Source: an uncultured Thermoleophilia bacterium
GTDB lineage: Bacteria; Actinomycetota; Thermoleophilia; Gaiellales; Gaiellaceae
Direction: 5' to 3'
Assembly (NCBI GenBank): GCA_963716435.1
Contig: OY970312.1
Coordinates: 985,576-1,049,575 of the forward strand
Length of the DNA stretch: 64,000 nt
Each line of letters starts with the position of its first letter. The stretch's first letter is position 1. Below the pieces are notes generated by a model. The model did not search any database. It was given only the letters and a program-made list of their open reading frames with translations, and had not been told where the DNA came from. The position numbers were made by a program, and so were the translations under genes. This document shows, piece by piece, positions 7,301-64,000 of the stretch.

Positions 7301-7311
7301 GAGCTTTCGAG

Positions 7312-7400: not shown

Positions 7401-7432
7401 AAGCCGCGACATCGTGCCACACGTGCGGCGGA

Positions 7433-36969: not shown

Positions 36970-37219
36970 TAGAACCCTCTCTGGCAGTAGTCGGTGATGA
37001 GGCCACTCTAGGGGAGTCGTTCGTTGGTCAAGGCGACGGTTGCCCCTGCGCACAAACCTGCAGAGCGTGCGCGCCAAGGCAGGCCTTGATCAACGGAGAG
37101 GCGAGGGCGCGAACCGAACCCGGAGTTCAGGCCGGCGGATCCGATCCTTCTTGACACAGATGGTGGTCAGGTGAGACAGTCGCCTCGTCAAGTCCTGTGG
37201 GCCCTCGGGCTCGCAGGAC

Positions 37220-37999: not shown

Positions 38000-38077
38000 C
38001 CCAGGCCATTCCTTGGCGGACTCAGTCCCTACTGTCTCTTGCGGTGGTGACGGCGCAACTCGCAAAGTCGAGCGCGG

Positions 38078-38425: not shown

Positions 38426-38426
38426 G

Positions 38427-38443
38427 TTAGAAATAGATTCTAA
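38427..38443. promoter_or_regulatory. Perfect palindrome TTAGAA-ATAGA-TTCTAA between divergent genes (candidate operator)
   Basis: Lies 1 nt from the wHTH start codon (38425) and overlaps the first base of the ATG at 38443. It is the AT-richest spot of the window. Confidence 0.5.
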
Positions 38444-39021: not shown

Positions 39022-40260
39022 GTTCCGCTCGTCGGTCGCGACGTCCGCGTCTGCGTCTCGCAGCCTCGTCGCTTCCCGAGGGATAGTGTCGAAGCCTGTC
39101 CGGAGCTTGGACATCTTGAGAATCGCGCGCTCGCGCGCTGCCTGTCCTGCTCGGGTCGCGAGTCGTATCTCAGCGGCCGCGACATCGGGGAGCGCGAACT
39201 CGCGAGCATCAGTTCCGACCGCCCAACAGTTGTGCGCGACGATCTGCTTCGTGCCGACCGGCGGCTCGGCTTCGGGATGATGCCCACACGGGCAGGGGCG
39301 ATTCAGGAAGAGCGCGCGCCGTATCGCCTCACCGGTGGCGCCTAGCGGCCCTGCGTTGCCCAGGACCGCAGGGTGGTAGGTGTGTACACCGAGGCCCGTC
39401 TCCTCGTCGTCGCGCTCGGGAAGTTCCGCCGGGGGGTGGCGGAAGGACATTCCGTGGAGACCAGCGCAGGTTGCGGCGACGCCGCTGGCGAGCATGGCGA
39501 GGTGCCCGTCACCCACGCACGAGACTGCCGCAGGCCGCCCGGTAAGCCGCTGGAGGCGTAGCGCGAGACGCGCATAGCCGGCGAGCTGGCGTCCACTCTG
39601 CGAGGTGTTCGCGGCGATGATCCAGTAGCCCGTCACGCCGTCGAGCTCGGCGTAGGCCGCCACGAGCCAGTCGATCACACCGGGAACGGCGGCATGGCGT
39701 CCCTGCACGATGATGGTCGCGTAGAGTTCGCGCCTCCCAATCTCCCCAGCCGCCGCAGCCCATGCCCGGCGATCCGCGAACTCCGTTGCAGCTAAGCGAG
39801 CGAGAAGCAGATCGTTCTTGCGTCCGGCCCGCCCTTCGGTCTCGAGCACATGACCGGGAGTTGTCAGGATCGTCGCTCCGCCCTCGATCTCTGCGGCGAG
39901 ATGATCGGCCGCGTAGCGCTCGGCAAAGGCTGCCCGGAGAGGATCTCCGTCCGCAACAAGTTGAACACCGGGACGATGAACCTTGAGGCGCGCAAAGGCG
40001 CCGCCGCGCTTCGGATGATCGACTGGGAGCTGGTTTCGCCAAGCCTGTGCCGGCAGAACAACCCCCATACCAGCCTTGAGCGCTTCAGAGACGAGGCTCT
40101 GGTCGAGCACCGCATGCGCGAGCGGCTTTGCGATCGCGCCCACGACCCGACGGTCGAACGAGGCGAGAACCAGCCCGGACCGGTAGCCCGGCCAGGCGAT
40201 CAGGCTTCGGCGCCCGATCTCGGGATGCTGCGGAGCTGCAACTAGCCCAGATTCACTCAT
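38842..40260 (-). CDS. Hypothetical protein (alternating strand/helix character, CPCGHH cluster)
   Basis: Start placed at ATG 40260 (MSESGLV). Contains NRPCPCGHHPEAEPPVGTKQIVAHNCW. Divergent from res. No confident family. Confidence 0.5.
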   Translation of the reverse strand: MSESGLVAAPQHPEIGRRSLIAWPGYRSGLVLASFDRRVVGAIAKPLAHAVLDQSLVSEALKAGMGVVLPAQAWRNQLPVDHPKRGGAFARLKVHRPGVQLVADGDPLRAAFAERYAADHLAAEIEGGATILTTPGHVLETEGRAGRKNDLLLARLAATEFADRRAWAAAAGEIGRRELYATIIVQGRHAAVPGVIDWLVAAYAELDGVTGYWIIAANTSQSGRQLAGYARLALRLQRLTGRPAAVSCVGDGHLAMLASGVAATCAGLHGMSFRHPPAELPERDDEETGLGVHTYHPAVLGNAGPLGATGEAIRRALFLNRPCPCGHHPEAEPPVGTKQIVAHNCWAVGTDAREFALPDVAAAEIRLATRAGQAARERAILKMSKLRTGFDTIPREATRLRDADADVATDERNSAGQLKRLQGRPLAHGAALQNCGSLPTKRGRQKHRIEARRPAIRTDPLSQTHRQCNESR

Positions 40261-40364
40261 TCGCTCGGAACTCTGCCCGGGCCGCCGGATGGAGCTGGAT
40301 CGGGCGCGCATGTGCCTCGATCCGATAGCCAGCAATGTGCCCCTCTCGTACGATGCTTCGGGCC

Positions 40365-46020: not shown

Positions 46021-46179
46021 CTACACCAGGCACCGGTGGGCGTCCGACTGGATCACCCCCAGGAGGTCGACGGTTCGAGTTCGGCTAGCTCCATCGCCCC
46101 GCTGCGCGGGCATGCCGTCTTCCGCGGTGTCCTTCGCCGCGAGCCGGTGAGCCGCGCCCCGTCGCGCGGTCGCGGCGGC

Positions 46180-47584
46180 GTGACGCGACATGCAAGACTT
46201 GACCCGTTCACTCGCGTGTCGTTCCAGCCGAGCCCGTTTCAGCTTGTCGCCGAAGAGCGGCTCCTGAACGAACCGATCTACAGGAAGGCGCGCGACAAGA
46301 TCGTCGAGTTCATCACGCAGTTGCAGGCGGCGCGGAAGCCGCAGGACTATGTCGGGCTGCACCGCAGCGCGCTGGCGCACCTCATCGCTTACCAAGAGGC
46401 CGCTGACGAGGCCATCGCGCAGCGGATGGAGATCCGCCGCCGGATCCGGGAACTCGCGCGCGAGGAACCGAAGCCGATCGAGGCCATTCAGGAGCAGCAG
46501 GCGCTGCTCGACCGCGTCGTCAACCAGGAGGCGACCCTGAAGGCCGTACACCATCTAGTCCGCGCCGTCGGCGATGGCATCGCCTGGCGAGCGCTGCGCT
46601 ACGACCGCCGCGCCTTCACGGTGCTCGGCAAGGGCGAACGCGTTGGTCGTTTGGCCTCAGGTATCGGTCGCGACGCCGAGCTGACGGCGCTCGCCAACCT
46701 CTGGGAGGAGGAGGGGCAGTTCGCAATCCACAACGACATGACCAACTGTCTGCGTCATGGCGACCTGACCGCCATTCGAGAAGCCGGCAGTCAGGTCGAA
46801 GTGACGATCTACGAAGTCAAGGCGGGGACGTCTCACGACGAGGCGCAGCTGCGACGGCTCGACAGGGCGACCGAGCTACTGCGAACGCACCTCGACCCGA
46901 CCGGCGGCAGCGACGGCGGCATGCTGCGAGTGACGTCGGTACCGGCGCGCTACGAGACGTTCTCATCTGCGCTACCCGGTCTGATTCAGCGGGCCAAGGC
47001 GGTGGGATTCGATTGGATCCTCCCGCACCCGTGCCTACTCGTCGGCGCCGTCGATTACCGCGTGTGGGGCCGCGGCGACGTTGATGACTTCACTGAGCGC
47101 TTCGCGAAGATGCGGGCCGAGGTTGGCTGGCCAGGAGAGGAACCCGAGATCCTCGACTGGATGTCCTCGCTGCGGCGCATGCGCGACCGCCACCACAGCT
47201 TCAGCTCGCTGGCTCCCTTTGCGATCTTCCCGCTCGCGCCCGAGGATGTCGCCGATGTCATCTCGGGGTCGATCGATCTCTTCTTCTCGCTTCACCTGCC
47301 GCGGCTCGAGCAGGCCTCGAGCCGGGATGGTGTCAGCGTCCGAGTTGCCCGCCCCCCTGGATCGTCGACGCTCTTCCTTGAAGCCAGCCGCGGCGGACGC
47401 GGTGTGACCGTGCCGCCACACTTGCGCGAGCAGATGATGACCGAGCTTCGTCACGCCCGATTGCATCTTCGCTGCCATCGACGAGATCCTGAAGCTGAAC
47501 GAGGCGAACCCGGGCGAGGCATACGACAGCCGCATCGTTGTCTTCGCCGACGAGCGGCAAGTGTGGGAGGTCGAGAACACGTAG
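46180..47584 (+). CDS. PD-(D/E)xK-like hypothetical protein, one frameshift near the 3' end
   Basis: AIHNDMTNCLRHGDLTAI ... VEVTIYEVKAG fits a D...ExK nuclease core (D at about 46762, EVK at about 46813-46821). Near 47445 the sensible reading switches frame (...MMTE / VTPDCIFAAIDEILKLNEANPGEAYDSRIVVFADERQVWEVENT*). The start is uncertain (GTG 46180 or 46216). Confidence 0.5.
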
Positions 47585-47716
47585 GGAGCGGGCCGCTTCG
47601 GCCACGCAGCGGACCGCAAACCGCCTGGCCGCGCTAGCAAGAAAACCTCGAGCCCCTTCTAAAGGAAACGTGATCGCGATCGACGCCCCATCTGAAGCTA
47701 CTGCTTCAATCAGATC

Positions 47717-48751
47717 GTGAGCTGGCAAGACCGCCTTCCCGATGGACTCTCCGACATCGAAGCGACCGAGGAGGGGTTTCAGGCGAGCCTTTCGCTTCCG
47801 GTCGACGGCGACGGCTTCTTCGGCCGCGAGTGCCGCGCCTGTGAGCAGCCGTTCAAGATGAACGCCGACGAGTGGGAGGCGCTCCCCGACGACCCACGAG
47901 TCACGTGCCCGTACTGCGGCGAGCAGCCCGAAGATGCCAACGACTTTATGACACCGGATCAGCAAGAGCGGGTCGGGGCCGCGATCAACGCGCTGGCCGA
48001 GCAATACGTGCACGGGGCGTTCACGGACACGCTCTGGCAGTCGTTCGGCTCGCGGCCACGCCGAACGGGTGGCGGCATGTTCGGCATCGAGATCAGCGTC
48101 GCTACCGGAGCGCCGCCCCCAATCAGGGTGCTGCCCGAATACGTCGAGGAGAAGGTGCGACGAACGATCACCTGCAGCAACTGCTCAACGACTTACGCTG
48201 TCTACGGGGCGAGCGCCTTCTGCCCAGTCTGCGGCCCGCGCGCAGCGCTTGCGACCGTCATCGAGGCGATCGAGGCAGCACGCACCGCCCTTGGCCTGGA
48301 GGATCTCCTCCCCGAGGACGCGCGTGAGCAGGCGCGTGCCGCAGGTGTCTTCGGCAACGTCGCCGCCGACACGATCAAGCGCGTCGTCACCCTCTTCGAG
48401 GTCTTCGCCCGGAACCAGCTCGAGGAGCGAGTATCGACTCACGTCGACCCGCTGCGGAAGGCGGGACGCGGCGTGTTCCAGCGGCTGGACGATGCTGACG
48501 ATCTCTTCGATCAGCATGCGGGACTGCGGCTCTCCGCACTGGTCAACAGCAAGACGTGGGCGCGCCTGCTCGTGACATTCCAACAGCGGCACGTGCTCGT
48601 TCACCGCCAGGGGCTGATCGACGACCAGTACCTCCAGCGCGTGCCCGCGGCTCGCCAACGAGTCGGGCAGGCTCTCGTCGTGACGCGCAAAGAGGCGGAG
48701 CAGGCGCTCGACGATCTCGAACGGCTCGTGCACGCACTCGCCTCGACGTAG
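47717..48751 (+). CDS. Double zinc-ribbon protein with a C-terminal HEPN-like domain
   Basis: CRACEQ...CPYCG and CSNCS...CPVCG ribbons. The C-terminal helical domain ends in FQQRHVLVHRQG, which matches the HEPN Rx4-6H motif (nt 48587-48604). Confidence 0.6.
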   Translation: MSWQDRLPDGLSDIEATEEGFQASLSLPVDGDGFFGRECRACEQPFKMNADEWEALPDDPRVTCPYCGEQPEDANDFMTPDQQERVGAAINALAEQYVHGAFTDTLWQSFGSRPRRTGGGMFGIEISVATGAPPPIRVLPEYVEEKVRRTITCSNCSTTYAVYGASAFCPVCGPRAALATVIEAIEAARTALGLEDLLPEDAREQARAAGVFGNVAADTIKRVVTLFEVFARNQLEERVSTHVDPLRKAGRGVFQRLDDADDLFDQHAGLRLSALVNSKTWARLLVTFQQRHVLVHRQGLIDDQYLQRVPAARQRVGQALVVTRKEAEQALDDLERLVHALAST

Positions 48752-48764
48752 CGATGCTGGCTGC

Positions 48765-49562
48765 GTGATTTGCGAAACGACATCAGGAGGCGACATCCGG
48801 CCGGAGATCGTGTCTGCGTTCGAGCCGCAGTTCGCCGCCTGCGACGCTCTGTACGAGTTCGCCCGCTCGCACCGACCCAGCCGGTCTGCGGCATCCGTGC
48901 CTGCGGACCGTCTGATCGTCGCGACGTATGCCCGCGGCTCGAAGACCTACCAGGGTGTACTGCGGCTCGCCTACGTCGGTTACGGCGCCCAGGCGTTCAT
49001 GCTCGGCCGCTCGCTGTACGAGGACATGCTTGTCGCACACTGGATCAAGCTCAATCCTGAGCAGGCGCCTCGGCAGCTCAACGACCATCGCCGCATGACC
49101 ATTGCCGCCTACCAGGGGGAGCTGAGCAGATTCGGGCTGGATGCGCCAAACGAGGAGCCGATCAACCGGGCGGAACGCGACCGGCTACGTCAGGAGTTTG
49201 GCTCTGGACCTTGGACGAAGCTGAGCATGGACAAGCTGCGGCGCGCAGTCGAGTCGGAGTTTCCGGAGCTGGAAGGCCACCGGCGGCTCCTGCTCCAGGT
49301 CGACGCACTCTTGCACCGTCACGCGAACCTCATTGTCCACCACTCGTTCTTGAGCTTGGGCGGTGCCGTGGCAAACGCGAGCGAGGATGGCATTACCTAC
49401 GACGTCGGCGTCTCGACGCGTTTCATCCCGCAGGCGCTCTTCATCGCCTTCTTCAGCTACATCCATCTGACGAGCCTGGTCGTACACGGCAGCGCGCGGG
49501 AAGAGCTCGCGCAGCTGTGGCACGAGCATCGCGACGCATTCACGGTGACACGAGCCGCCTAG
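48765..49562 (+). CDS. DUF5677/AbiV-like helical protein
   Basis: Starts 13 nt after the HEPN gene stop. All-helical, with the motif GRSLYEDMLVAHWI reminiscent of DUF5677/AbiV-family proteins. Assignment by eye. Confidence 0.45.
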   Translation: MICETTSGGDIRPEIVSAFEPQFAACDALYEFARSHRPSRSAASVPADRLIVATYARGSKTYQGVLRLAYVGYGAQAFMLGRSLYEDMLVAHWIKLNPEQAPRQLNDHRRMTIAAYQGELSRFGLDAPNEEPINRAERDRLRQEFGSGPWTKLSMDKLRRAVESEFPELEGHRRLLLQVDALLHRHANLIVHHSFLSLGGAVANASEDGITYDVGVSTRFIPQALFIAFFSYIHLTSLVVHGSAREELAQLWHEHRDAFTVTRAA

Positions 49563-49777
49563 CGTTGGGCCGCGAGGGGAGCACGGCCGCGGCAGCTCGT
49601 TCGTCGCGCGCCCGCGCTCCGAACTGCGACCTGCCGGGGCGCTGCCGTGGTCAACTTCTGGTCAAATAGCCGCGGCAAACAATCACAAAGCGCCTGGCGG
49701 CAGAAGCGGCATGGATGACGCCGCCGAAGGTCTGACCGCGGCGCCCTCGGTCGGCGTCTTGTTCGGGGACGCCGTTG

Positions 49778-49806
49778 TTGCTTTGAGCCAACAGCGAGGC
49801 TAGCCT
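49778..49806 (+). promoter_or_regulatory. Candidate promoter for the AlpA-like gene (near-leaderless)
   Basis: TTGCTT (49778-49783), a 17-nt spacer, TAGCCT (49801-49806), and the ATG at 49811. Confidence 0.3.
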
Positions 49807-49810
49807 GGCT

Positions 49811-50026
49811 ATGGTGCAGGTCGATTCGCGAACCGATCTCGTGATCGCTACCGACATTGCGAAGCGGCTCGCGATCTCGCCCCAGCGGGTTTACGTGCTC
49901 GCATCCGGATCCGGCTTCCCGAGGCCGCTTGGCATGCTCGGCCGCTCGGCCGTCTGGCGCTGGAGCAGCGTCGAGCGGTGGGCGCGCGAGACCGGCCGGC
50001 TGCCGGCCGACAACGCCGCCGTGTAG
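49811..50026 (+). CDS. AlpA/excisionase-family HTH protein
   Basis: 71 aa. IATDIAKRLAISPQRVYVLASGSGFPRPLGMLGRSAVWRWSSVERWA matches the pattern of MerR-like excisionase/AlpA DNA-binding domains. Confidence 0.7.
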   Translation: MVQVDSRTDLVIATDIAKRLAISPQRVYVLASGSGFPRPLGMLGRSAVWRWSSVERWARETGRLPADNAAV

Positions 50027-50091
50027 CACCCCATTGGACCGGTACGTGCGTCTGAAGCCCGATGACACAAGGGCACTCGCCCGCATCTGCG

Positions 50092-53000
50092 TCAATCAGT
50101 GACTTTCGTGGCCGGCGCTTCCACGCCGTGCGAGGGGAACCGCACCTCCAGAGCCGACCGGCGGCCCGTGATCCCGGCAAGCGTCACAGACGTGCTCGGC
50201 TTGAACTCGAGCGTTCGGAGCGGATTCGGAAAGATCTTCACCACCGTGTCGTAGCCTTCCTCGAGGCCGGCAACGACAGCGAGAAAGAACTTGTCCCCCT
50301 CCAAAAACGCGCGCTCGGCCTCGTTCGCCGTGAGGGTGATGTCGTCCGGTAGTGGCCCATAGGTGGCCTTGAGTTCGAAGTAGCGGCGAAGCTTGTCGAG
50401 CGCGTCTGCGCCGACGCCGCGCAGATGACGATAGTCGCGCAGCCCGGCGGAGTCGCCGTTGATTGCGAGCTGCAGCACTTGGAGGGCGAGATCCTCCCTC
50501 TCCTCATCGGAGTAGGCCAATGGCGCGGTCCGGGGTGCCGGCCTCGAGCCAGCGATCGGCTTGCCCGCTGGAACGTCGTCCCTTAGGCCGCGCCGACGGC
50601 TCTTCTTGCCCTCGGCCCCGTTGCTGCCATCAGTCACGCCTACGACTTTCTCGCTGAGATCCTCGATCTGCTTCAGCCGTCTCGCCGGGAGCAAGCGCTC
50701 CGTGGTCGCGCCAGCTCTCGTCGTCACGAGATCCCGCTCGGTCTTCGCGCGCTTCTCGACCGGCGTCGAGCTCTTTGCTTGCTCGAACAAGGACGTGAGG
50801 GCTTCTCCGTCGGCGCTGTCCTGGACGAGCGTAACCGCTCCCCTCTCCCCCTTCGCCGCCCTATCCCATGAACGGCTCCACGCAAGTGCGAGCTTGTCCC
50901 GATCCCCCTCAGTAAAGAGGGCGGCGATCACCCGGCCGCCGGCGTCGTCTTCACCGGCCGCCTCCGCGTCAGCGAAGTAGAACGTGAGCGGCGTTCGCGT
51001 CAAGTGGGCGCGGGCGGGAACGGACACTGGCGCTCGACGGTTCAGCCGAAGCTCAATCTGCAGGTGCGGATCGAGCGCGATTCGGGCGCGTGCAAGTTCC
51101 TCCCAAGGCGTCGAACACGCTTCGAAGAGCTTTGGATCGTGTCTCGTCAGCCAGTCGCGCAAGAGTTCGACGGCTGCACCGAACCGTCGCTCTAGGGTTG
51201 CGCCACCGACGAACGCTTGCTCGTGAACGACGGCGTCGAAGTCGCCCTCCGTAAGGAGCAAGGCAGCGGCGGCGCCGATCAAACGGGGCACTGCCGGCGG
51301 TGCGACGGAAAGCCTCCAAACCGCAAGGCGAGACGACAGCGCATTCCCGACGTCCTCATCCGCTATGACATAGATAGGGCGATCGGTCTGCCACCCGACG
51401 CCGGTCCGAAGGGGAAGATTCCGCAAGCGAGCCAGCTCCCGGCTCGAGGCCTCCGCAACATGCGCCTCAAGGTAGAGGTAGACGTTGACGAGGATCTGCT
51501 CGTCCTCCTCATCGGGGGTTCCTCGAGCGATCTCAGCCAGTACATCGATGCAATCGCTGACGGAGGGCGGAACGATTCGTAGGGCGCGCCAAAGCCGCTC
51601 GGCCGCGGAGCGCTCCGAGACGAACGGTCGGCGACCGCCGAAGATCGGCGCGCCGAGGAAGACTGCGGAAGGTGGCAGCCAGCGGCCGTTCGCGTAGACC
51701 AGGCCGGGCTTAGTACGGTGGGTGCCGAAGCGGGCCCGGAGTTTCCGCATCGGCAAGTCACCGACCATGTCGTCGGGCGACGGCTCCCTCTTCTTGCAGG
51801 CCGCAGCAATGGCCGCGTACCGCAGCATCAGCATCCGTTCATCAAGCGGGCCGCCGTGGTCACGCAGGGTCGCGAGCTGCTCGACCATCTCGCTCACCTG
51901 AGGGTCGGTCTCGATTCGGAGCGCTCGCACGGCCGGCGAGGGAGCGTCTCCCTCATCGAGTTCGTATGCGAAGGAACTCCGGTCGTCGCCGAGGATCGCC
52001 TCGGTCGCCGGCGTCCGTACCGCCAGGTCGCGCGGCGCCTTCTTCTTGCCGTCCTCGCTTGTGAGCCAGGGCTCGTCCATGGCCTCGGCAAGCCAGGACG
52101 CCGGGATCGTTCCTGCGCGGTGCCAACTCCCGTACGACCAGACGGCGTCCGCCTGGGTGTGCGGCGCATACAGACGGTCCCACTCCCGCTCAAGCGTCGA
52201 CAGCAGAGCGCGAGCCCGCTCGCGGCGGGCGCGCAGCCCGCGTTCGCGCTGTAGATCCTTGAGCGCCGCGTGCAGGTCGGGCGAAAGTCGGTCTCCTTTG
52301 AGATGAGTGGCGTGGCGCTCCAATCCCCGGAGCGCCTCGATCTGGGGCCGCGCGAGCAGGTGCGGCTCGATCGGGCTCGCCGGATCGCCGTAGCGCGTCT
52401 CCACGCGGCTCGGCGCGACAAGCCTTGGCGCCGCCTCGGCACCGAGGAGGCCGAAGAACGCGCGAGCCGCGAGCGGCCTCGGAGCGCCGGAACCGGCCCG
52501 CCGCCTGCCCGGTCGACGAAGGACATCTTCGTAGCGAGGATGTATCCAACCCAGCCCCGGCGCCCGACCGGCTGCCTTGCTCCACCCATCTCGACGATCC
52601 TCGATCGACGCCGGCAAGTAAGAGTCCGCGGGACGTCCCACGCGCGTAACGCGCTTCGAGCCATCCCAACCCTGGACGTCGACCGCGATCACCCGGCCGA
52701 CCGCTGACCCGAACTCCTGCTGTATGCGCTGGTCGAGCGCGGCGAATGCGTCGCGCATGAGGCGAAGCTCGTCGTCATCGATGCGAAGCGGTTCGTCTTC
52801 GTCGTCACGCGAGGCGAGCGCTCGGAGCGTGCTCTCAGGATCAGGAGCGTCCCTGAGCATTTCGTTCTGCTCGAGCCATTGCCTGACTACGACCGCATCG
52901 GTCCAGCGAGAGAGGTAGACGGGATCGATTACGTGTGCCAGCCCGATGCGGGCAGCGAGCGAGTCGTCGTGAGCCGAGCGAAGGAGCAGTTCGCCCTCGA

Positions 53001-54747
53001 CGTCGGCCATCGGCGGGACGATTCGATTGCCATTGGCCGCGACCACCGATCGCAGCGACCAGAGGGTGTTGCCGAGGTCGGCCTCGATCGCCGCGCGGGC
53101 AAGCTTGATGAACCAGCGTACGTCGCGCGGGCCAAGGTCGTCGTCTTCCCAGTCGAGGAGCCTAAGGCTCTCCTCGACGTCGACCAAGCTTGCCCCTCCG
53201 ATCTCGCCGAGGATCCTCCGCCAGCGCCCCTCGGGATCTCGCGCGGACCGCGGAAGCAGCGTCAGACCCGGTCGAAGGCCGCCGATTTCCTTCTGCGTTA
53301 GAAGTCCATCTACCGCCTCTGCCTCGTACGCGAGGGTCCGCAGCCGCCGTTCCTCTCCAGTGATGCTGATCCGGAAGCTGCGGCGTACGCGTGCTTGTAC
53401 CGACCCGACGAGTTCGGCTATGCGGTCCGCGACCCATGCATCGGCGGAGAAGGCTTGCTCCGCCCGCTGCGGGATAGCTCTCCATGCTGTCGCGGGGTTG
53501 TTTGCAAGCCGCTCGAGCGCGACAGATGCGGTCAGCTCCGCGAGGCGCTCGAACAGCCACGCATTCAGGGGCTCATGTTGAATCCCGCGCCGAGCGACGT
53601 CGATATCGAACTGCGCGTTGACGCTGAGCGGAAGCTGAGTTCCCACGCCCAACGGCAGCCCTGCGTAGATCTGGCCTGGATCGCTCTGAGCGGGCACGGC
53701 GACGGCGATCGGCGTCGTGTCCTCTCGCGCCTTGTACCGGCGGTGAAGGCTCGGCGGCATCCTCCGCTCGATCTCGTACCGCTGCCAGGAGCGACTGCTT
53801 CGTGGCGCGCGGAGTGTCGTGCGTCGACATGACTCCTTGATTCCGGGCAGAGTGAGCGTTTCGGTCGTGACCTCGGCGAGCCGGTGATTGATCAGGGCCT
53901 TCCGACGCCCGATCGAGACGAGCCGAAGAGAACGCACTGTGTCTAGAAAGACCAGTGACTCGGAGCCGAGCGAGGCGAACCAGGTCTGGAATTCGTCGGC
54001 ATCGAAACCCTCCCGCAACCGAAGTTCGAGCAGCGTCTCGGTCGAAGCCGAGTTGTAGAAAGCAGGAATCGACCGCGCACGCTGCGCGGGTCGCACGTGG
54101 TTCCCGGTGATCGCGAAGTCATAGGGCGCACAGTGAACGGTGAGGCTGTCGCCGAGGCGCCCAAGGGTCTTTAGCCCGATCCCGAAGCGGCCTTTTGCAC
54201 GGGGGTCGTCACGCTTTGTTGAGACGAAGGCGAGGGTCATCGCGATCACGTGATGCAGATGCACCCGCTCTCCGTTGTGGGCGATCAAGAGTCGGCCATG
54301 CTTCCCTGATCTCCGGATCGCGACCCGAACCTCAGACGCATGCAAGTCATCGGCGTTCTGGACGATCTCGATGAGCCCGTGGAACGACTCGACATTGAGC
54401 TGCTCCGCGCTCATCTGCGCGCCCTCCAGAACCTCGCGCAGCACCCCCGGAGCCCCGAGCTGAAGTTGCTCAAGTTCGCCGAGCGCCGCGTGAGCGAACG
54501 CCGGAGTCAGAGGGTCGTGGACTTCGCCTGCGCGAAGTCCGAGTCGCCAGAGACTCTGAGCCGCTTCACGACCTAGCTCGGCTTCCGGCCCTGTTTCTGC
54601 CCCGTGGTCCGTCGCGTCGTTCAAGGTCACCCCGATAGAAGACTCCGCCTCTAGTCTCGCACCCGCTCGATTCCGAGCAAAGGCTCCGGAACGCAGACAC
54701 AGGTTCACCCTTCGGGTGGGGAGGCAGGCCACCGGCCGCTTTCGCAT
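50092..54747 (-). CDS. Giant sacsin-like GHKL (HATPase) protein with a C-terminal DUF3883 (PD-(D/E)xK-like) domain
   Basis: Uninterrupted 4656-nt ORF. N-box LIEIVQNADD (nt about 54346-54369). G-box KGRFGIGLKT. Sacsin-repeat-like YAGLPLGVGTQLPLSVNAQFDIDVARRGIQHEPLNAW. C-terminal GVGADALDKLRRYFELKATYGPLPDDITLTANEAERAFLEGDKFFLAVV fits DUF3883. The true start may be GTG 54630. Confidence 0.8.
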   Translation of the reverse strand: MRKRPVACLPTRRVNLCLRSGAFARNRAGARLEAESSIGVTLNDATDHGAETGPEAELGREAAQSLWRLGLRAGEVHDPLTPAFAHAALGELEQLQLGAPGVLREVLEGAQMSAEQLNVESFHGLIEIVQNADDLHASEVRVAIRRSGKHGRLLIAHNGERVHLHHVIAMTLAFVSTKRDDPRAKGRFGIGLKTLGRLGDSLTVHCAPYDFAITGNHVRPAQRARSIPAFYNSASTETLLELRLREGFDADEFQTWFASLGSESLVFLDTVRSLRLVSIGRRKALINHRLAEVTTETLTLPGIKESCRRTTLRAPRSSRSWQRYEIERRMPPSLHRRYKAREDTTPIAVAVPAQSDPGQIYAGLPLGVGTQLPLSVNAQFDIDVARRGIQHEPLNAWLFERLAELTASVALERLANNPATAWRAIPQRAEQAFSADAWVADRIAELVGSVQARVRRSFRISITGEERRLRTLAYEAEAVDGLLTQKEIGGLRPGLTLLPRSARDPEGRWRRILGEIGGASLVDVEESLRLLDWEDDDLGPRDVRWFIKLARAAIEADLGNTLWSLRSVVAANGNRIVPPMADVEGELLLRSAHDDSLAARIGLAHVIDPVYLSRWTDAVVVRQWLEQNEMLRDAPDPESTLRALASRDDEDEPLRIDDDELRLMRDAFAALDQRIQQEFGSAVGRVIAVDVQGWDGSKRVTRVGRPADSYLPASIEDRRDGWSKAAGRAPGLGWIHPRYEDVLRRPGRRRAGSGAPRPLAARAFFGLLGAEAAPRLVAPSRVETRYGDPASPIEPHLLARPQIEALRGLERHATHLKGDRLSPDLHAALKDLQRERGLRARRERARALLSTLEREWDRLYAPHTQADAVWSYGSWHRAGTIPASWLAEAMDEPWLTSEDGKKKAPRDLAVRTPATEAILGDDRSSFAYELDEGDAPSPAVRALRIETDPQVSEMVEQLATLRDHGGPLDERMLMLRYAAIAAACKKREPSPDDMVGDLPMRKLRARFGTHRTKPGLVYANGRWLPPSAVFLGAPIFGGRRPFVSERSAAERLWRALRIVPPSVSDCIDVLAEIARGTPDEEDEQILVNVYLYLEAHVAEASSRELARLRNLPLRTGVGWQTDRPIYVIADEDVGNALSSRLAVWRLSVAPPAVPRLIGAAAALLLTEGDFDAVVHEQAFVGGATLERRFGAAVELLRDWLTRHDPKLFEACSTPWEELARARIALDPHLQIELRLNRRAPVSVPARAHLTRTPLTFYFADAEAAGEDDAGGRVIAALFTEGDRDKLALAWSRSWDRAAKGERGAVTLVQDSADGEALTSLFEQAKSSTPVEKRAKTERDLVTTRAGATTERLLPARRLKQIEDLSEKVVGVTDGSNGAEGKKSRRRGLRDDVPAGKPIAGSRPAPRTAPLAYSDEEREDLALQVLQLAINGDSAGLRDYRHLRGVGADALDKLRRYFELKATYGPLPDDITLTANEAERAFLEGDKFFLAVVAGLEEGYDTVVKIFPNPLRTLEFKPSTSVTLAGITGRRSALEVRFPSHGVEAPATKVTD

Positions 54748-55072: not shown

Positions 55073-56125
55073 ATGCAGACCATCGAACAGCCCGTCCACC
55101 GGATCGAGGACGCGACCGCGCCGCTCTGGTTCGGCTCGCGGCCCGGCCGGATGGGGCGACGTCGTGCGCGCCGTCGAGCCCGGACGCAGGCGCACAGCGC
55201 GGCGGCGATGATCGACGCCGCCGGGCTGGACTGGACGGTCGAGCAGCACCCGCTCGAGGCCGTCGTCGAGCGCGAGTACCAGTCGCTCCGCGTGCCGGTG
55301 CCGCGCGCACGTCGCGAACGTCCGCAGCGACACGCGCGCCGTGCTCGGCGTCGTCGGCGAGGGCTACGAGCCGCTGCAGAACCGCGCCGCGTTCGCCTTC
55401 TGCGACGCGATCACCGACTCGGGGCGAGGCGCACTGGCTCGGCGCGGGCGCGACGCGCGGCGGCGCGCGCGTGCACGCGCTGATGCGGCTCGACCGCGAG
55501 ATCCGGATCGGCGGACGCGGAGGGGGAGGACGTGCTCCCGCTGCTCTGCTTCCGCAACGGCCACGACGGCGGCCTCGCCGTCACGGTCTCGCGTCGCGCC
55601 GTTCCGGCTCGCGTGCCTGAACGGGATGCTGCTCCCGCTCGACGGAGCGCGCAGCGCACCTGGAAGGCGCGCCACACGGCGAACGTGGAGGCGAAGCTCG
55701 CCGACGCGCGCCGCACGCTCGGGATCGCCTGGCGCTACTACGACGAGTTGGAGGAGGTCGGCGGGCGGCTGATCCGCGAGCGCGATGGGCGCGGCCGAGT
55801 TCGAGCGCTTCCTCGCCCGGCTCGTGCCGCTGCCCGAGCCGCGGCCCGATCGCGACGAACGGCGGGCGCGCCGTGCGCAACGTCGAGCGCGTGCGCGAGG
55901 CGATCCGCACCGCCTACCGGGCGACGCCCGACCTCGACGAACATCCGCGGCACCCGCTGGGGCGCGCTGCAGGCCGTCACGGCCTACGTCGACCACGTCG
56001 CAGCCGACCCGCGCGACCGCCGGCCGCACGCACGCCGGAGGCGCGCTTCGAGCGCGCGACCGAGCCGCAGCCGCTCAAGGACCGCGCGCTCGCAGCTACT
56101 GACCGAAGGAGGGACGCAGCCATGA
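55073..56125 (+). pseudogene. DUF932-family (phage/plasmid-like) protein, at least 5 frameshifts
   Basis: Pieces lie in different frames: AAMIDAAGLDWTVEQHPLEAV, VLGVVGEGYEPLQNRAAFAFCDAITDSG, DVLPLLCFRNGHDGGLAVTVS, APFRLACLNGML and RGTRWGALQAVTAYVDHV. Confidence 0.75.
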
Positions 56126-57953
56126 CCGCCACGCTGAGCATGGTTCCGCTGGCGAAGATCCGCCCGAGCGAGGACAACCCGCGCAGCGAGTTCGACGACG
56201 AGCAGATGGCCGAGCTGGTCGAGTCGGTGAAGCGGCACGGGATCATCACGCCGCTGACGCTCGCGCCGCGACGGCGAGGGCGGCTTCGCGATCATCGCCG
56301 GCGAGCGCCGCTACCGCGCGGCGAAGGCCGCGAAGCTCCGCGAGGTGCCCGCCCAGGTGCGCGAGGCCGACGGCGACGCGCTCACGCTCGCGGTCGCCGA
56401 GAACGTGATCCGCGCCGACCTCAGCCCGGTCGAGGAGGCGCGCGCGTACCGGCGGCTCGTCGACGAGCACGGCGACGCGGCGAAGGTGGCGAGGCTCGTC
56501 GGCAAGAGCGAGCGGCTGATCGCGCGAGCGGCTCGACCTCCTGCGCCTCCCCGACGAGGCGCAGGAGCTGCTCGCCGGCGCGCAGGGTGCCGCTCGCCTG
56601 CGCGCCGGCGCTCGTCCAGATCGCGGAGCGCGAGCCGCTGCTCGCCGACCTCGACGGCGGCATGGCTCGCGGAGCGCCCGCACGACGCCGCGCGCTTCCC
56701 GGCCGACCCGGGCGAGGTCGTCGGACGACGTGCTCGCGCGCCGAGTGGCACGACGACGAGGGCGAGCCGCTGCACCCGGTCGCCTACAGCGTCGGCGGCT
56801 ACTACGGGCCGATCCTCCCGCGCGGCCGCGCACGCGAGGACGCAGCTCGCCGGCCGTGCTCGCGAAGCTCGGCGCGCACGCGGAGGCGGTCGCGGCCGCG
56901 CTCGCGGCGCTGCCCGAGATCGCGCACGCGTCCGAGTACGACTGGCAGGCGCGGCGAGGCCGAGGAGGAGCGCGCAGCGCGACTGCTTCGCGCTCGACGA
57001 CGACGACGCCGACGCCGCGCGCGCGTTCGGCTGCCTGCTCGAACTGCCCGGCCGCGAACGGACGCGGCGATCACCGCTACGTCACCGATCCCGAGTGGCT
57101 CGCGGATCGGCTCGTGCAGAAGATCGCCGCCCACGCGAGCGGCGAGGCCGAGCGCGAGCACGCCGGGAGCGCGAGCGAACGCGCTGCCGAGCCGCCGCGG
57201 ACGACGCCGAGAAGGAGGCCCGCCGCCAGGAGCGCGAGCGCCACTACGAGGAGCGCGTCTCCGCCCGGGCGCGCAACCTCGACCTCGGCGCGGCGCTCGC
57301 GCGGTGGCAGCCGAAGCTCGACACCGACGCGGTGAAGCTGCTCGGCTCGCTCGTCCTGACTCCACTACGGGAAGGCGGCGGCGTGGGCGCACCGGCTCTG
57401 CGTCGAGCAGCCGACGACGACGAACAAGCAGGGCAAGGTGACCGTCCGCTACCCGCGCGGCGCGCAGGCCGAGAAGCAGCAGCACGAGGCAGGCGCTCGC
57501 CGCGCTCAAGCGCGCCCGGACGCCCGAGGCCGCGCTCGCGGTCGTCCTGCGCCTGCTCGTCGCGCAGCGGCTCGCCGACACGGCCGGGCTGCCGAACGCC
57601 GACCGGCAAGGCATCTACGAGCCGCAGGAGCTGGCCGACTCGCCGCGTGCTCGACAAGCTCGCCCGCGCGTCGCGCCGCCCTCGGTCAAGCAGCACCTCG
57701 CCGAGCAGGAGGCCGAGCGCGAGCGGCGCGAGCAGGCCTGCCGAGCGAGCAGGCCGCGCGGCTCAGCGAGCAGCGCGCGAAGCTCGCCGCAGGCGAGCCG
57801 TCCGCTGCGAGTGCTGCCTCGCCCGATCGAGAGCCGAGCAAGCCGCCGAGAAGCACGGCGCGCTCGTCCACGCCGGCGACTGCGAGCGCAGTGGGGCAGC
57901 GCCTCGACGACGACGAGCGAGACCGCATGATGCACCGTCCGCCCGACTACTAA
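56122..57953 (+). pseudogene. ParB/Srx-like nuclease-domain protein, at least 4 frameshifts
   Basis: ATG overlaps the DUF932 stop (ATGA). LSMVPLAKIRPSEDNPRSEFDDEQMAELVESVKRHGIITPL, then in another frame FAIIAGERRYRAAKAAKLREVPAQVRE ... ENVIRADLSPVEEARAY. Later pieces lie in further frames. Confidence 0.75.
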
Positions 57954-57979
57954 CCTCGATAGCAGGCGAGACACAGATG

Positions 57980-58012
57980 CACTTGACCCATAAATGGGTC
58001 GAGTGCTAGAGT
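57980..58012 (+). promoter_or_regulatory. Inverted repeat plus promoter upstream of the relaxase (candidate operator or oriT-proximal site)
   Basis: CACTTGACCCAT-AA-ATGGGTCGAGTG, a 12-bp inverted repeat with one G-T pair (57980-58005). It embeds TTGACC (57983-57988), an 18-nt spacer and TAGAGT (58007-58012). GTG start at 58019. Confidence 0.45.
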
Positions 58013-58018
58013 GGCGTC

Positions 58019-60979
58019 GTGCTGAGCGTCGCGAAGCTGACGCCGGGCCAGGAGGGCTACTACGAGCGCTCCGTCGCCGCGGGGCTCGACGACTACTACG
58101 CGGGCCGCGGCGAGTCGCCCGGCGTCTGGACCGGCCGCGGCGCCGCCGCGCTCGAGCTCGAGGGCGTCGTCGAGGAGGGCGAGCTCGGCGCGGCTGATCC
58201 GCGGCGACCACCCGCAGACCGGCGAGCGAGCTGCGGCGCCGGCACCCGAAGGCGCGGACGATCACGATCGAGCGGATCGACCCGCTCGACCGGCGAGCGG
58301 CGCCTCGAGGACGAAGACGCTCGCGCCGGTCGCCGGCTTCGACCTCGTCTTCTCGCCGCCGAAGAGCGTCAGCCTGCTGCACGCGCTCGGCGACGAGGAG
58401 ACCCGCCGCGCCGTCAACGAGGCGCACCTGGCCGCCTGGCAGGCGGCGCTCGCCTACCTCGAGGACGAGGCCTGCGTCGTCCGCCGCGGCACGCAACGGC
58501 GTCGCGCGCGAGCACGCCGCCGGGCTTCGTCGCGGCCGCCTACCAGCACCGCACCAGTCGCGGGCGCAGGACCCGCACCTGCACACGCACGTGATCGTCG
58601 CGAACATGGCCCGCCGCCCGAGCGACGGCAAGTGGCGCGCGCTCGACGGCGAGGCGATCCTCAAGACGCTACCGGCTCGCCGCCGGCTACCTCTACCAGG
58701 CGCACCTGCGCGCCGAGCTCTCCCGCTCGCTCGGCGTCGAGTGGGAGACGCCGCGCAAGGGCATGGCCGAGCTCGAGCGACGTGCCGCGCGGCGGTGATC
58801 GCGCGAGTTCTCGACGCCGGCGCGCGCAGGTCGTCGAGCACATGAACGAGCACGGCGACCGGCGGGCTTCTACGCCGCCCAGGTCGCCGCCCTCGAGACC
58901 CGCGAGCGCAAGGAGCACGTCGACCTCGCCGCGCTGCGCGAGGACTGGCGCGCCCGCGCCGCCGAGCACGGCCTCGGCGAGCGCGAGCTCGACGCGCCGT
59001 GCTCGGCCGCGTCGCCAGCCGCGAGCTCGACGTCGCGACGAGCTGCTCGAGATCGCCGCGCGGCTGCTCGGCCCCGACGGGCTGACCGAGAAGCAGCACG
59101 GCGTTCTCCGACCCCGACGCTCGTGATGGCCTGGGCCAGGCGCACGCCCAGGGCGCGCCCGGCCGAGCGCGTCCGCCGGCTCGCCGCCCGGCTCACTCGG
59201 CACCGACGGCGTCGAGCCGGTCGGCGAGGCGCCGCAGCCCGGGCCGGCCGGCCCGCTACTCGACCGCGCGAGCTGATCGCCGCCGAGCGCGCCGCGCTCG
59301 CGCTCGTCGAGCGCGGCCGCGACGCCGACGCGCCGTCGATCCGCGACGCGAGCGCGTCGCCGAGATCGAGCGCGCCGACCGATCGCGCTCTCCGCCGAGC
59401 AGGAGGCGATGCTGCGCGCGGTCGCCACGAGCCCGGACCGCGTCGTCTGCGTCGTCGGCCTCGCCGGCGCCGGCAAGACGACCGCCACCCGCGCCGTCGC
59501 CGAGCGTCTTCGCGCAGGCCGGCATCCCGGTGCTCGGCGCCGCGCCCTCCGGCGTCGCCGCCGAGAAGCTCCAGGACGAGACCGGCATCCCGTCGACCAC
59601 GCTCCACCGGCTGCTCGACGACGCGCGCGCCGGACGGGCTGCCTCCGGCTCGTGCTCGTCGTCGACGAGGCCGGGCATGGCCGAGACGCGCATCCTCGCG
59701 CCCGTGCTCGAGCTGGTCGAGCAGGCGGGCGGCAAGGCGATCCTGATCGGCGACCCGCACCAGCTCCCCGCCGTCGGCGCCGGCGGCCTCTTCGCCGGCA
59801 TCGTCGAGCGCCACGGCGCCGTCGAGCTGACCGAGAACCGCCGCCAGCACGACGAGCTCGAGCGCGACGCGCTCGCGCGCGTCCGCGCCGGCGTCGGCCG
59901 CGACTACCTCGCCTACGCCGAGAAGCGCGAGCGGCTCGTCGTCTCCGAGAGCCCCGTCACGACGCGAGACGCGCCTGCTCGCCGACTGGTGGGAGCACGC
60001 CCGCGACGACCTCCCCGGCAACGTCATGATCGCGCTCCGCCGCCGCGACGTCGCCGAGCTCAACGCGCTCGCCCGCGCGCTCATGGACACCGACGGCCGC
60101 CTCGGCCAGCGAGCGCCTCACCGTCGCGGACGCGCGAGTTCGCCGCCGGCGACCGCGTCGTCTGCCTCCGCAACTCCGACGCGCCTCGGCGTCAAGAACG
60201 GCACCCGCGGCACCGTCGAACACGTCGACCGCGAGCAGCGCACGCTCACCGTCGCGACCGACCGCGGCGACCGACGTCGAGCTCAGCCGCCCGCTACCTC
60301 GAGGCCGGCAACGTCCGCCACGCCTACGCGCTCACCGGCCACGCCGCCCAGGGCCTCACCGTCGAGCGCGCCTTCGTCCTCGGCGCCGGCGAGGCACGCC
60401 TGCAGGAGTGGGGCTACGTCGCCCTCTCCCGCGCCCGCACCGAGACCCGCCTCTACGTCACCGGCGACGCCGCGCGAGCACGAGAGCCACTTCCACGACC
60501 TCGACGACCGCGACCCGCTCACCCGCCTCGGCCGGCACTCGAGGAGTCGGCGATCGAGCGAGCTCGCCGTCGACCAGCGCCCGCTCCCGTCCGGGCCGCG
60601 GCACGACGCGCGTGCCGAGATCGAGCGCACGCGACTCAACGAGCTCGACCGAACGCGGCTCAGGCTGCTCGAGCAGCAGCGGCTCGCGATGCTGAAGGTA
60701 CGAGATTCCGCCGAACGGAAACTGGGCGAAGCCGAAGTGAAGCTCCACCGGCTTCCGCGACTCGTCCGCGGCCGGCAGCGAGACAAGCTGCGTGCCGAGA
60801 TCGCCCGCGAGCGAAACGCAGTCTGGATCGCCGACAAGAAGCTCGCTCAACTCGCCCCCCATGCGGGCGTGGGCGTTTCCGCGAGCATCGAACTCGCCGG
60901 CAATGCCCGTCGTAGCGGATGCAGGCAGCAAGATCTACGGACTCTTCGCCGCGGGAACCATCTCGAGCCGGGCCTCTGA
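58019..60979 (+). pseudogene. MobF/TrwC-type conjugative relaxase with C-terminal RecD-like helicase, at least 6 frameshifts
   Basis: VLSVAKLTPGQEGYYERSVAAGLDDYYAG (TrwC N-terminus). FDLVFSPPKSVSLL. YQHRTSR..DPHLHTHVIVAN. Walker A GLAGAGKTT. VVDEAGMA. LIGDPHQLPAVGAGG. HAYALTGHAAQGLTVE. These are scattered over all three frames. Confidence 0.8.
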
Positions 60980-62337: not shown

Positions 62338-62647
62338 AAATGCCTCTCACCAAGAGGCCGTTCTCCCTGCGCCGCGGTCCCCCATTGATTTCGGCGTGTC
62401 GCCGCCAGCGCCACGCTGCGCGGGTCAGGCCAGACGGAGGGGGTGCCGCATCAGCAGCGTGGCGTAGCGGTCGTCGGTCGCGCACGATCGAGCCGGCCTG
62501 CTGGTAGAGCTCGGTGAGCGCCCATGTCCGCAATATCTCGTCCGGCTCATCGGGCGCGCCCCCAGCCGAGGATCGAGATCCGGGTGCTACCGATGATCGC
62601 GTGCAGGTTCGCGGCCCGTTGACCACGGTGATCGCGTGGGGCGATGC

Positions 62648-64000
62648 TCACATATAAAAGCCGTACCGAGGTTCGATGTGCGCGTCGTCGTCGAGCCACT
62701 TGAGGATGTCGCCGACTTGGCGTGCTGCACGGATGGTGATCGGCTCACGCCCGTCGAACTGGGTGTTATTCCAGTTGAGCTTTGTGAGCGCGAGGAGCTC
62801 CTCGGCGAGGAAGCGCGGCGTCTCGACGGTCTTGTCGCAGCGGAAGCCGAGCGGGAGGGGTACGTACGCGCCGGGGTAGGTCTCGAAGAACTCGACGCTG
62901 CCACGCGTGTACAGCACATGTGTGTTGTCGTCGAGGCTGAGGAAGGTGCCGCGTAGTGGCGGGTAGGAGCCGCGGCGGAACAGGCGGGTGAGCGAGCCGA
63001 AGACGCTGACGAAATCGGCGGTGGACACGCGCTCCGAGTTGAGGGCGGCGGTCATGCCGTCGAGTTCCGCCTCGGAGAACTTCGAGGTCTTGTGGACGAC
63101 GACGCGCGCCGGAAGCGTGTGGTGCTCCCGCCGGTAGGTCTGGAGTGCCTGAACGAGGAGGTCTTGTGCGCTCTCCGCGCTCAGATGTGGCTGCCGGTCG
63201 TCCTTCGAGATCTGGGCCCCACCGCCACGGACGACGACTCCCTGCCCCAGCTCGTTGAACACCTGCGCGACACTCGTTCGAAGGTTCTCGTCGTTGGGCG
63301 ACCGGAAGAAGGAGACGCCGACGAAGCACGAGGTGACCGCGTGCGGGTCGCGGGCAAGCCGCCAAAGCGTGCCGCCGGACTTGTAGTAGAGGGCGGTGAA
63401 GAAGTTCCATGCGCGCGTCGCTTCGTCCTGAAGCTGACGGCCGCCGCCGCGTCGGCGGCCGCCCCATGTGGGCGGCTTTACGATCTGGATCGGCACGCCG
63501 ATCTCCATCGCCTGCGCTTTCAGGAGCTGGCGGAAGTCGACCCGCTTCCAGCGGGCCTCAGCCGCGGGCGCCGCTTCCTCGTCTTCTTCAGCGGCTGCAG
63601 GGGCGGTGGGGGGCTCGCCGCTGACGTTGAGAAGGCTCTGCGGGAGCGCGCAGACGATCACGTCGACGCGGCCGCGCTCGGCGATGTGGCGCAGCTCGTC
63701 GAGGAAGAGCTCGACGGAGGCTACGGTGGCCGCGTGCTTCGTTTTGCCGCTCAGTTCGGCGAACGCGTCGTTCGCGATCGTCCGCTCGGTGCGCGCATCG
63801 AAGACGAGCCTTGCTGCCAAGGACGAGTCCGCGCTGAGGCCGGGAAACGGCGGCGCGGTATGCGGATGCCCAACGAGCGGTGCCTCCACGCCCTCCGCGG
63901 CTCTTTCGAGCCAGCCGCGTACGCCCTCGACCGTCTCGGGGGTGCCGACGATGCCGACACGGATCGAGCGCGGCTCAGCCACGTCCTTCAGTTCGAGCGG
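62648..64000 (-). CDS. Short prokaryotic Argonaute (MID-PIWI), predicted catalytically inactive. 5' end truncated by the window edge.
   Basis: PIWI C-terminus LTKLNWNNTQFDGREPITIRAARQVGDILKWL ... PRYGFYM. VVVHKTSKFSEAELDGM where active Agos have RDG. MID-like DFRQLLKAQAMEIGVPIQIV. The frame stays open from 63982 to 64000. Confidence 0.8.
   Translation of the reverse strand, partial: PLELKDVAEPRSIRVGIVGTPETVEGVRGWLERAAEGVEAPLVGHPHTAPPFPGLSADSSLAARLVFDARTERTIANDAFAELSGKTKHAATVASVELFLDELRHIAERGRVDVIVCALPQSLLNVSGEPPTAPAAAEEDEEAAPAAEARWKRVDFRQLLKAQAMEIGVPIQIVKPPTWGGRRRGGGRQLQDEATRAWNFFTALYYKSGGTLWRLARDPHAVTSCFVGVSFFRSPNDENLRTSVAQVFNELGQGVVVRGGGAQISKDDRQPHLSAESAQDLLVQALQTYRREHHTLPARVVVHKTSKFSEAELDGMTAALNSERVSTADFVSVFGSLTRLFRRGSYPPLRGTFLSLDDNTHVLYTRGSVEFFETYPGAYVPLPLGFRCDKTVETPRFLAEELLALTKLNWNNTQFDGREPITIRAARQVGDILKWLDDDAHIEPRYGFYM

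Follow-up and report, generated by a model that had tools for sequence, protein, structure and literature searches.

A probable SPARDA short Argonaute system in a high-GC Thermoleophilia genome

A short Argonaute gene at the edge of the window

A 64,000-nucleotide stretch of DNA from an uncultured Thermoleophilia bacterium of the family Gaiellaceae (GenBank assembly GCA_963716435.1, contig OY970312.1, positions 985,576 to 1,049,575 of the forward strand), hereafter the window, ends inside a minus-strand gene whose product is, as judged from its sequence, a short prokaryotic Argonaute (pAgo) consisting of MID and PIWI domains. Together with a gene found immediately beyond the window edge in other assemblies, it most probably forms a two-gene SPARDA system, in which a pAgo of the short-pAgo clade S2B is paired with a DREN-APAZ nuclease; we give this reading a probability of about 0.9. 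The parts of the Argonaute gene that lie within the window are as follows.

62648..64000, minus strand: short pAgo gene, codons 30-479 plus the stop codon TGA (62648-62650), from the open reading frame (ORF), its translation, and PADLOC and PDB matches
63353..64000, minus strand: MID domain (fragment residues 1-216, full-length residues 30-245), from alignment to NbaAgo, domain limits in PMC12205087 and the AlphaFold model
62651..63352, minus strand: PIWI domain, predicted to be catalytically dead (fragment residues 217-450), from alignment to SPARDA Argonautes and from Foldseek
63554..63619, minus strand: low-complexity loop rich in Ala, Pro and Glu within MID, GEPPTAPAAAEEDEEAAPAAEA, from columns ~180-220 of the family alignment A1 and from the predicted local distance difference test (pLDDT)

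The reading frame runs through 450 codons without interruption and has not yet closed when it reaches base 64000. Its GC content at third codon positions (GC3) is 0.85, comparable to that of other confident genes in this window of 70% GC. A preliminary description of the locus had estimated that about 30 codons were missing, and the exact number proves to be 29. The corresponding N-terminal residues, MRAAFIPEPLLEFHAGTHIDIRYGLANLG, are carried by three related proteins: P0001, which comes from a public assembly and is 100% identical to the window pAgo over 403 residues, and P0002 and P0003, which are 80% and 79% identical to it. The strongest PADLOC match likewise covers its profile only from position 31 onward, in agreement with the missing N-terminus. 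The full-length pAgo is therefore 479 residues long, a gene call of that length occupies the same position on a second public contig (ERR15459708), and the start codon is predicted near position 64087, which places the first 29 codons past the window edge. An ORF of 444 residues starting with GTG was ruled out as the real start of the gene by the 29 extra N-terminal residues in the relatives and in the identical protein.

The assignment of this protein to the short pAgos is carried by profile, sequence and structure comparisons. The PADLOC profile pAgo_I matches the window protein over profile positions 31-455 (E = 6.3e-154), while a scan of NCBIfam returned only a match far below threshold. 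Among sequences in the PDB, phmmer places SPARDA Argonautes at the top (9qbp_B, E = 7.7e-85; 9qbl_B, 7e-84; 9jsb_A, 1.4e-79), with alignments that span residues 12-447 of the 450-residue fragment. Argonautes of other classes follow at weaker scores, namely SPARHA at 2.8e-64, SPARTA at ~1e-31 to 1e-33 and SPARSA at 2e-17. In HMMER alignments the window pAgo is ~40% identical to EaeAgo.

For an AlphaFold2 model computed from an alignment of 26 sequences, the predicted template modeling (pTM) score was 0.80. When this model was compared with the PDB by Foldseek, the top 22 matches were all SPARDA Argonaute chains from Enhydrobacter, Xanthobacter and Novosphingopyxis, with template modeling (TM) scores of 0.75-0.82, 33-37% identity and a best E of 2e-40; these were followed by SPARHA, SPARTA and SPARSA. 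The full-length protein aligns end to end with the solved SPARDA Argonautes of 482-485 residues and contains MID and PIWI only. The MID loop listed above varies in length and sequence across the family in alignment A1, and residues 130-151 have pLDDT values below 50. The PIWI and MID hallmarks that the preliminary description saw in this ORF, and the likeness it noted to the short pAgos of SPARTA, SPARSA and SPARDA type, are thus borne out by the PADLOC, PDB and Foldseek matches, despite the lack of a match to the Pfam Piwi model that is weighed below.

A DREN-APAZ gene directly upstream

The preliminary description had predicted that a gene for an effector-APAZ protein would lie immediately upstream of the pAgo, beyond position 64000. 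Two public contigs, both found by exact look-up of the 368-residue AAA+ protein encoded in the window, place a DUF4365-APAZ gene there on the same strand. On the first, a 7,047-bp Logan contig (ERR12036786) that encodes P0001, a gene for a 423-residue protein with a PF14280 (DUF4365) match occupies positions 2173-3444, the pAgo begins at 3444, and a convergent gene for a 368-residue AAA/DUF5925 protein follows the pAgo. The second contig (10,942 bp; ERR15459708) carries in order the AAA+ gene, a gap of 310 nucleotides that equals the spacer in the window, the 479-residue minus-strand gene and the 423-residue DUF4365 gene. On both contigs the last base of the upstream gene is also the first of the start codon of the pAgo, and this overlap of one nucleotide suggests translational coupling of the putative pair. 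The JGI metagenome contigs held no exact match to the last 41 nucleotides of the window.

Profile searches of the upstream protein, P0123, identify both of its parts. In addition to PF14280, it matches the PADLOC profile Aga_REase-PNTD1-PNTD2, including the APAZ part (E = 2.5e-140), and it aligns with solved DREN-APAZ chains (9qbp_A, E = 1.7e-48; 9jsb_D, 1.2e-46; 9qbq_A, 1e-42). In a 26-sequence alignment of the partner family (A2), D26 and Q46 of P0123 are invariant, and K48 and E30 are nearly so. Alignment to 9jsb_D equates D26, Q46 and K48 with D41, Q60 and K62 of the partner from Novosphingopyxis baekryungensis (Nba), the triple mutation of which abolishes nuclease activity (bioRxiv 2023.06.08.544223). 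The protein also bears an acidic C-terminal tail, …PPKDDDDAGRLF.

Since the gene that precedes the pAgo in this organism encodes a DUF4365/DREN-APAZ protein, the effector belongs to the known SPARDA subtype and not to a new one. The preliminary description held that the subtype could not be decided from the window; this stands insofar as the partner is invisible there, but the question is settled in favor of SPARDA by the public contigs of the same organism. Membership in the SPARTA or SPARSA classes was rejected on the N-terminal domain of the partner, which is DUF4365 and neither TIR nor SIR2; the matches of P0123 to SIR2-type PADLOC profiles stem only from the APAZ region common to both (residues 150-377). 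SPARHA membership was likewise rejected, as the N-terminal domain is DREN and not HNH, and the match to the SPARHA chain 9om4_A is confined to the APAZ part (residues 150-374; E = 5e-16).

A separate set of proteins, P0232-P0240 (~595-625 residues), combines an N-terminal nucleoside phosphorylase domain (PF01048) with a region matched by the APAZ part of the partner. These proteins appear to be another effector-APAZ class.

Conservation and limits of the cassette

We collected 81 loci with relatives of the pAgo, comprising 80 GTDB genomes from many phyla and one additional locus, L001. The best match in the GTDB genome scan is 51% identical to the window pAgo. In 78 of the 81 loci the pAgo gene is immediately preceded, on its own strand, by a gene for a DREN-APAZ homologue, and the remaining three are truncated matches or very short contigs. 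In L001, whose pAgo is 80% identical to that of the window, the DREN-APAZ gene (6849-8171) and the pAgo gene (8171-9619) share a TAGTG overlap. Locus L082 has a pAgo that is 79% identical and retains the C-terminal part of an APAZ gene, which is 73% identical to P0123 and overlaps the pAgo through TGATG.

On the other side of the pAgo the window contains the following features.

62338..62647, no strand: non-coding spacer of 310 nucleotides that closes the cassette, from a terminator scan and from the same gap on ERR15459708
61231..62337, plus strand: convergent gene for a 368-residue AAA+ ATPase with a DUF5925 N-terminal region, from the ORF and Pfam

This layout agrees with the preliminary description, which had placed a degenerate stretch and a convergent AAA+ gene downstream and had found no operon partner there. 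The scan for terminators returned one terminator-like hairpin in the spacer, at 62342-62358. No homologue of the AAA+/DUF5925 protein was found in any of the 81 related loci, on which ground it was rejected as a partner, and tblastn and blastn comparisons of the spacer and region 3′ of the pAgo with the DNA downstream in L082 revealed no similarity. The nearly constant DREN-APAZ neighbor upstream, the missing AAA+ homologues and the lack of anything shared downstream with L082 together argue that the predicted unit is a two-gene cassette ending at the pAgo stop codon.

Slicer site

The positions at which an active Argonaute carries its DEDX tetrad were located by alignment to human Ago2 (hAgo2, residues 591-822) and TtAgo (residues 472-685). 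Both reference fragments match their PDB sequences exactly, which fixes the numbering of the catalytic residues as D597, E637, D669 and H807 in hAgo2 and D478, E512, D546 and D660 in TtAgo. The window pAgo has the following residues in their place.

63311..63313, minus strand: S259 (in GVSFF), position of the first catalytic Asp (hAgo2 D597, TtAgo D478), by MAFFT against hAgo2
63188..63190, minus strand: P300 (in DRQPHL), position of the glutamate finger (TtAgo E512, hAgo2 E637), by MAFFT
63086..63088, minus strand: T334 (in VVVHKTSK), position of the second catalytic Asp (TtAgo D546, hAgo2 D669), by hmmsearch, hhalign and MAFFT
62732..62734, minus strand: I452 (in PITIRAARQVG), fourth tetrad position (TtAgo D660, hAgo2 H807), by MAFFT with the xxVGxL anchor

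All three MAFFT modes pair VIFLGADVTH of hAgo2 with SCFVGVSFFR of the window protein, and the column of S259 holds S, G or A in the family. The modes disagree on the first catalytic strand of TtAgo, which is why the position of the first Asp was taken from hAgo2. For the second Asp, hmmsearch with the pAgo family profile pairs LPARVVLHKTS with LPSRVLLLRDG of TtAgo, hhalign finds the same register against KPTRIIFYRDG of hAgo2, and the three MAFFT modes concur; these agreeing registers identify T334. The hhalign comparison of the family profile with the single hAgo2 sequence is weak (31 columns, probability 0.14) and was used only for its agreement with the profile search and MAFFT. Because MAFFT pairs LHLADRLVKEVGRL of TtAgo with PITIRAARQVGDI of the window, the fourth tetrad residue is I452, an assignment robust to a shift of one or two residues since D, E and H are all absent from ITIRAAR.

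Of the four columns, that of P300 is the most uncertain, as it falls in a loop, the conserved DRQPHL segment: MAFFT puts both reference glutamates on this residue, and the anchors from the profile search and hhalign lie within two residues of it. Even with this uncertainty, the other three positions are predicted to be enough to inactivate the slicer. The pAgo is thus predicted to be slicer-dead, with all four DEDX positions occupied by non-catalytic residues, as the preliminary description proposed from the segments GVSF, HKTSKF and IRAARQ; these are present and align to three of the four tetrad positions. A catalytically active long-A pAgo, which would also have N and PAZ domains, was ruled out by the absent tetrad and by the length and fold of a protein with MID and PIWI only.

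Guide-binding pocket

Alignment of the window pAgo to 9qbl_B (XauAgo) and 9qbp_B, together with alignment A1, delineates the putative pocket for the 5′ end of the guide.

63380..63538, minus strand: guide 5′-end pocket in MID
63530-63532, minus strand: R186 of the RK-type 5′-phosphate motif
63518-63520, minus strand: K190 of the same motif
63485-63487, minus strand: Q201 of the same motif
63380-63382, minus strand: K236 of the same motif

The K, Q and K positions of the pocket (K161, Q172 and K207 of alignment A1) are invariant in the 26 family members. In NbaAgo, residues R183, K187 and K240 hold the 5′-phosphate via a metal ion (PMC12205087), and these correspond to R186, K190 and K236 of the window protein. 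In XauAgo, N179 reads base 1 of the guide, and Q222 and N230 read base 2 (bioRxiv 2025.04.08.647717). The window pAgo has matching residues at the latter two positions (Q220 and N228) and carries Asp184 where XauAgo has N179, Asp being the norm for the family in A1. The RK-type 5′-phosphate pocket looks intact, and the pAgo looks competent to bind a 5′-phosphorylated guide.

Comparison with characterized systems

The closest counterparts of the window system are XauSPARDA from Xanthobacter autotrophicus and EaeSPARDA from Enhydrobacter aerosaccus (PDB 9QBL, 9QBQ, 9QCC and 9QBP; bioRxiv 2025.04.08.647717). Like these, it pairs a DREN-APAZ gene with a short pAgo that aligns end to end (E = 7.7e-85 and 7e-84; TM 0.77-0.82) and shares the RK-type MID pocket, the predicted dead slicer and the equivalents of Q222 and N230. 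Its partner aligns over both DREN and APAZ (E = 1.7e-48 and 1e-42) and ends in an acidic C-terminal tail. Unlike them, the window system is known from sequence alone, is only ~37-40% identical, has a longer Ala/Pro/Glu-rich MID loop and resides in a genome of 70% GC; it differs from XauSPARDA also in the Asp at the N179 position. NbaSPARDA (PDB 9JSB, 9JSP, 9JSZ and 9JT2; PMC12205087 and bioRxiv 2023.06.08.544223) has the same architecture and equivalent residues in the MID pocket and the DREN active site, although its pAgo is ~33-35% identical to that of the window and its partner matches at E = 1.2e-46.

More distant relatives share the Argonaute but differ in the effector. The pAgo of SPARHA (HNH-APAZ plus short pAgo; PDB 9OM4; PMC12738770) belongs to the same broad S2B group (E = 2.8e-64; TM 0.71), and its partner has a homologous APAZ region (E = 5e-16). 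SPARHA also activates through filaments, which would be expected of the window system by homology; however, its effector is an HNH nuclease and that of the window system is DUF4365/DREN. SPARTA (TIR-APAZ plus short pAgo; for example PDB 8FEX and 8IFK) likewise has a short pAgo of MID and PIWI with a dead slicer, and its RNA-guided sensing of DNA leading to abortive infection may, by homology, extend to the window system. In contrast, the SPARTA effector is a tetrameric TIR NADase and not a nuclease filament, and the Argonautes are only ~22-25% identical.

The SPARDA family was already known, and the window locus is a new, uncharacterized member of it and not a new kind of system. If it functions as its characterized relatives do (PMC12205087; bioRxiv 2025.04.08.647717; bioRxiv 2023.06.08.544223), the pAgo and DREN-APAZ would form a heterodimer, and the pAgo would load short 5′-phosphorylated RNA guides derived from transcripts of an invader. 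By pairing with complementary single-stranded DNA of the invader, the guide would displace the acidic C-terminal tail of DREN-APAZ and push sensor loops of the PIWI domain (the ‘beta-relay’). The complexes would then form filaments in which DREN domains tetramerize, and these tetramers would be expected to cut DNA indiscriminately, as well as RNA in the case of NbaSPARDA. The resulting death or dormancy of the cell would halt the spread of a plasmid or phage, in the manner of abortive infection.

As one more SPARDA locus, drawn from a genome of 70% GC and 33-40% identical to the three characterized systems, the window system has modest comparative value. It could serve comparisons of guide 5′-nucleotide preference and of filament interfaces, or the search for candidate nucleic-acid detection tools. 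It also provides an example of a system split by the edge of a window and resolved via exact-protein look-ups in public assemblies.

Alternative explanations

Several observations weigh against the assignment of the locus to SPARDA as a working two-gene system. Identity to the characterized systems is just 33-40%, and the guide type, activation and defense phenotype are inferred by homology to NbaSPARDA, XauSPARDA and EaeSPARDA. The Pfam Piwi model does not match the pAgo at E<=1, a negative result that stands beside the highly significant PADLOC match. The partner gene itself lies outside the window and is linked to the pAgo by exactly identical proteins and a matching gene arrangement rather than by overlapping DNA. 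Its called start falls ~16 residues after those of all homologues in alignment A2, which is probably a start-codon choice of the gene caller; the alternative is that the first DREN helix is shortened. P0001 (440 residues; ERR12036786) is a frameshifted version of the same pAgo gene that diverges after residue 432 through an indel of one nucleotide relative to window positions 62766-62800 and ends in …EELLRAHKAQLE, and this +1 frame is also readable in the window; the frameshift reflects either an error of assembly or a null allele that occurs in nature. The damaged pAgo copy and the short partner, along with the neighboring ParB and TrwC-relaxase/helicase genes, which are broken over several frames, could mean that the locus is a decaying, non-functional SPARDA remnant within a degraded mobile element. 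We regard this as unlikely, given that the pAgo is intact both in the window, over all 450 codons, and in the second assembly, where it is 479 residues long. Moreover, its GC3 resembles that of other window genes, all residues invariant in the family are retained, including the MID pocket and the D, Q and K of DREN, and the coupling overlap of one nucleotide has been kept.

The composition of the system is the other point on which a SPARDA pair has to be weighed against alternatives. The window by itself does not reveal the partner, the Argonautes of SPARHA, SPARTA and SPARSA are matched by the pAgo as well, if less strongly, and APAZ is also fused to other effectors such as a nucleoside phosphorylase, all of which would leave room for a short pAgo of another effector class, whether TIR-APAZ (SPARTA), SIR2-APAZ (SPARSA), HNH-APAZ (SPARHA) or an undescribed partner. 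However, the gene upstream in the same organism, the ranking of SPARDA above SPARHA, SPARTA and SPARSA by both phmmer and Foldseek, and the DREN-APAZ partner in 78 of 81 relatives make this the most improbable of the explanations considered. A three-gene variant, in which a conserved gene just before DREN-APAZ serves a high-GC SPARDA subclade as a functional accessory, is also very improbable, if slightly less so. Such a gene, encoding the 303-residue protein P0247, does lie immediately upstream of DREN-APAZ in the organism of the window, and its product is 67% identical to that of a 324-residue gene at the same position in L001. Yet none of the 80 other SPARDA loci has a homologue of P0247, distant homologues are found in other islands that lack a neighboring pAgo (P0248 in L083; P0249 in L084 and L085), and the gene is separated from DREN-APAZ by 110 nucleotides in L001 and by ~230 in the organism of the window, whereas the core genes overlap. 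The close kinship of these two loci accounts for their shared neighborhood, and the other genes upstream in L001, when looked for in the other SPARDA loci, did not recur. The 303/324-residue gene was rejected as a core component on the ground that its family occurs elsewhere without a pAgo. The SPARDA pair and the 303-residue protein may conceivably act as a three-component variant, and Asp184 may, separately, alter the guide 5′-nucleotide preference relative to XauSPARDA, which prefers 5′-AU; both are long shots beside the two-gene SPARDA system that we favor.

Genomic neighborhood

The window is chromosomal and not part of a plasmid, because a large-type bacterial signal recognition particle (SRP) RNA (158 bits), a tRNA-Val(CAC) and a tRNA-Ser(GGA) are encoded near its start (60-434 and 7311-7400). 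Its GC content falls to 65-67% between 36 and 54 kb, compared with 70-75% elsewhere, and the region from 36000 to 54000 looks like a defense island. Features in and beside this region are listed below.

36478-37077: PtuB-like HNH protein
40335-40976: ResIII fragment
41667-43328: weak REase_III match
43725-44525: partial type III methyltransferase (profile positions 165-291 of 983)
47717-48751: PDC-M14A candidate
48765-49562: DUF5677 protein
50092-54747, minus strand: Tiamat TmtA, an ORF of 1551 residues matching PADLOC PDLC03968 near end to end (1386 bits, E = 0)
55873-60915, plus strand: matches to ParB_N, HTH_ParB, TrwC relaxase, AAA_30 and UvrD_C_2, split over overlapping frames

Several genes of the island at 36-54 kb look fragmentary. 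The TmtA ORF has no Pfam match, and Tiamat is a second, independent defense system that lies ~8 kb from the pAgo. The stretch from 55873 to 60915 has the highest GC content of the window (75-77%) and is either a decayed relaxase/ParB pair of a conjugative element or a run of indel errors.

The contig from ERR15459708 extends the view beyond the window (~64.1-71 kb in window terms). Upstream of DREN-APAZ and on the same strand, it carries genes for proteins of 303 and 250 residues, followed by a divergent AbiEi_4/AbiEii pair and two small genes. The defense island therefore continues beyond the window, and the SPARDA system lies in this island beside what may be a decayed conjugative element.

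The family of the 303-residue protein is represented by the following members of ~300-330 residues.

P0247: 303 residues, organism of the window
L001: 5764-6738
L083: 8001-8942
L084 and L085: 8001-8939

Domain searches with this family yielded sub-threshold matches only, to HEPN in the N-terminal part and to a Lar-type zinc ribbon in the C-terminal part. Its members reside in three kinds of neighborhood: with SPARDA; with type I restriction-modification, SIR2_2 and HEPN_AbiU2 genes; and with an integrase, a resolvase and an NYN-domain protein. The family is a candidate stand-alone defense gene.

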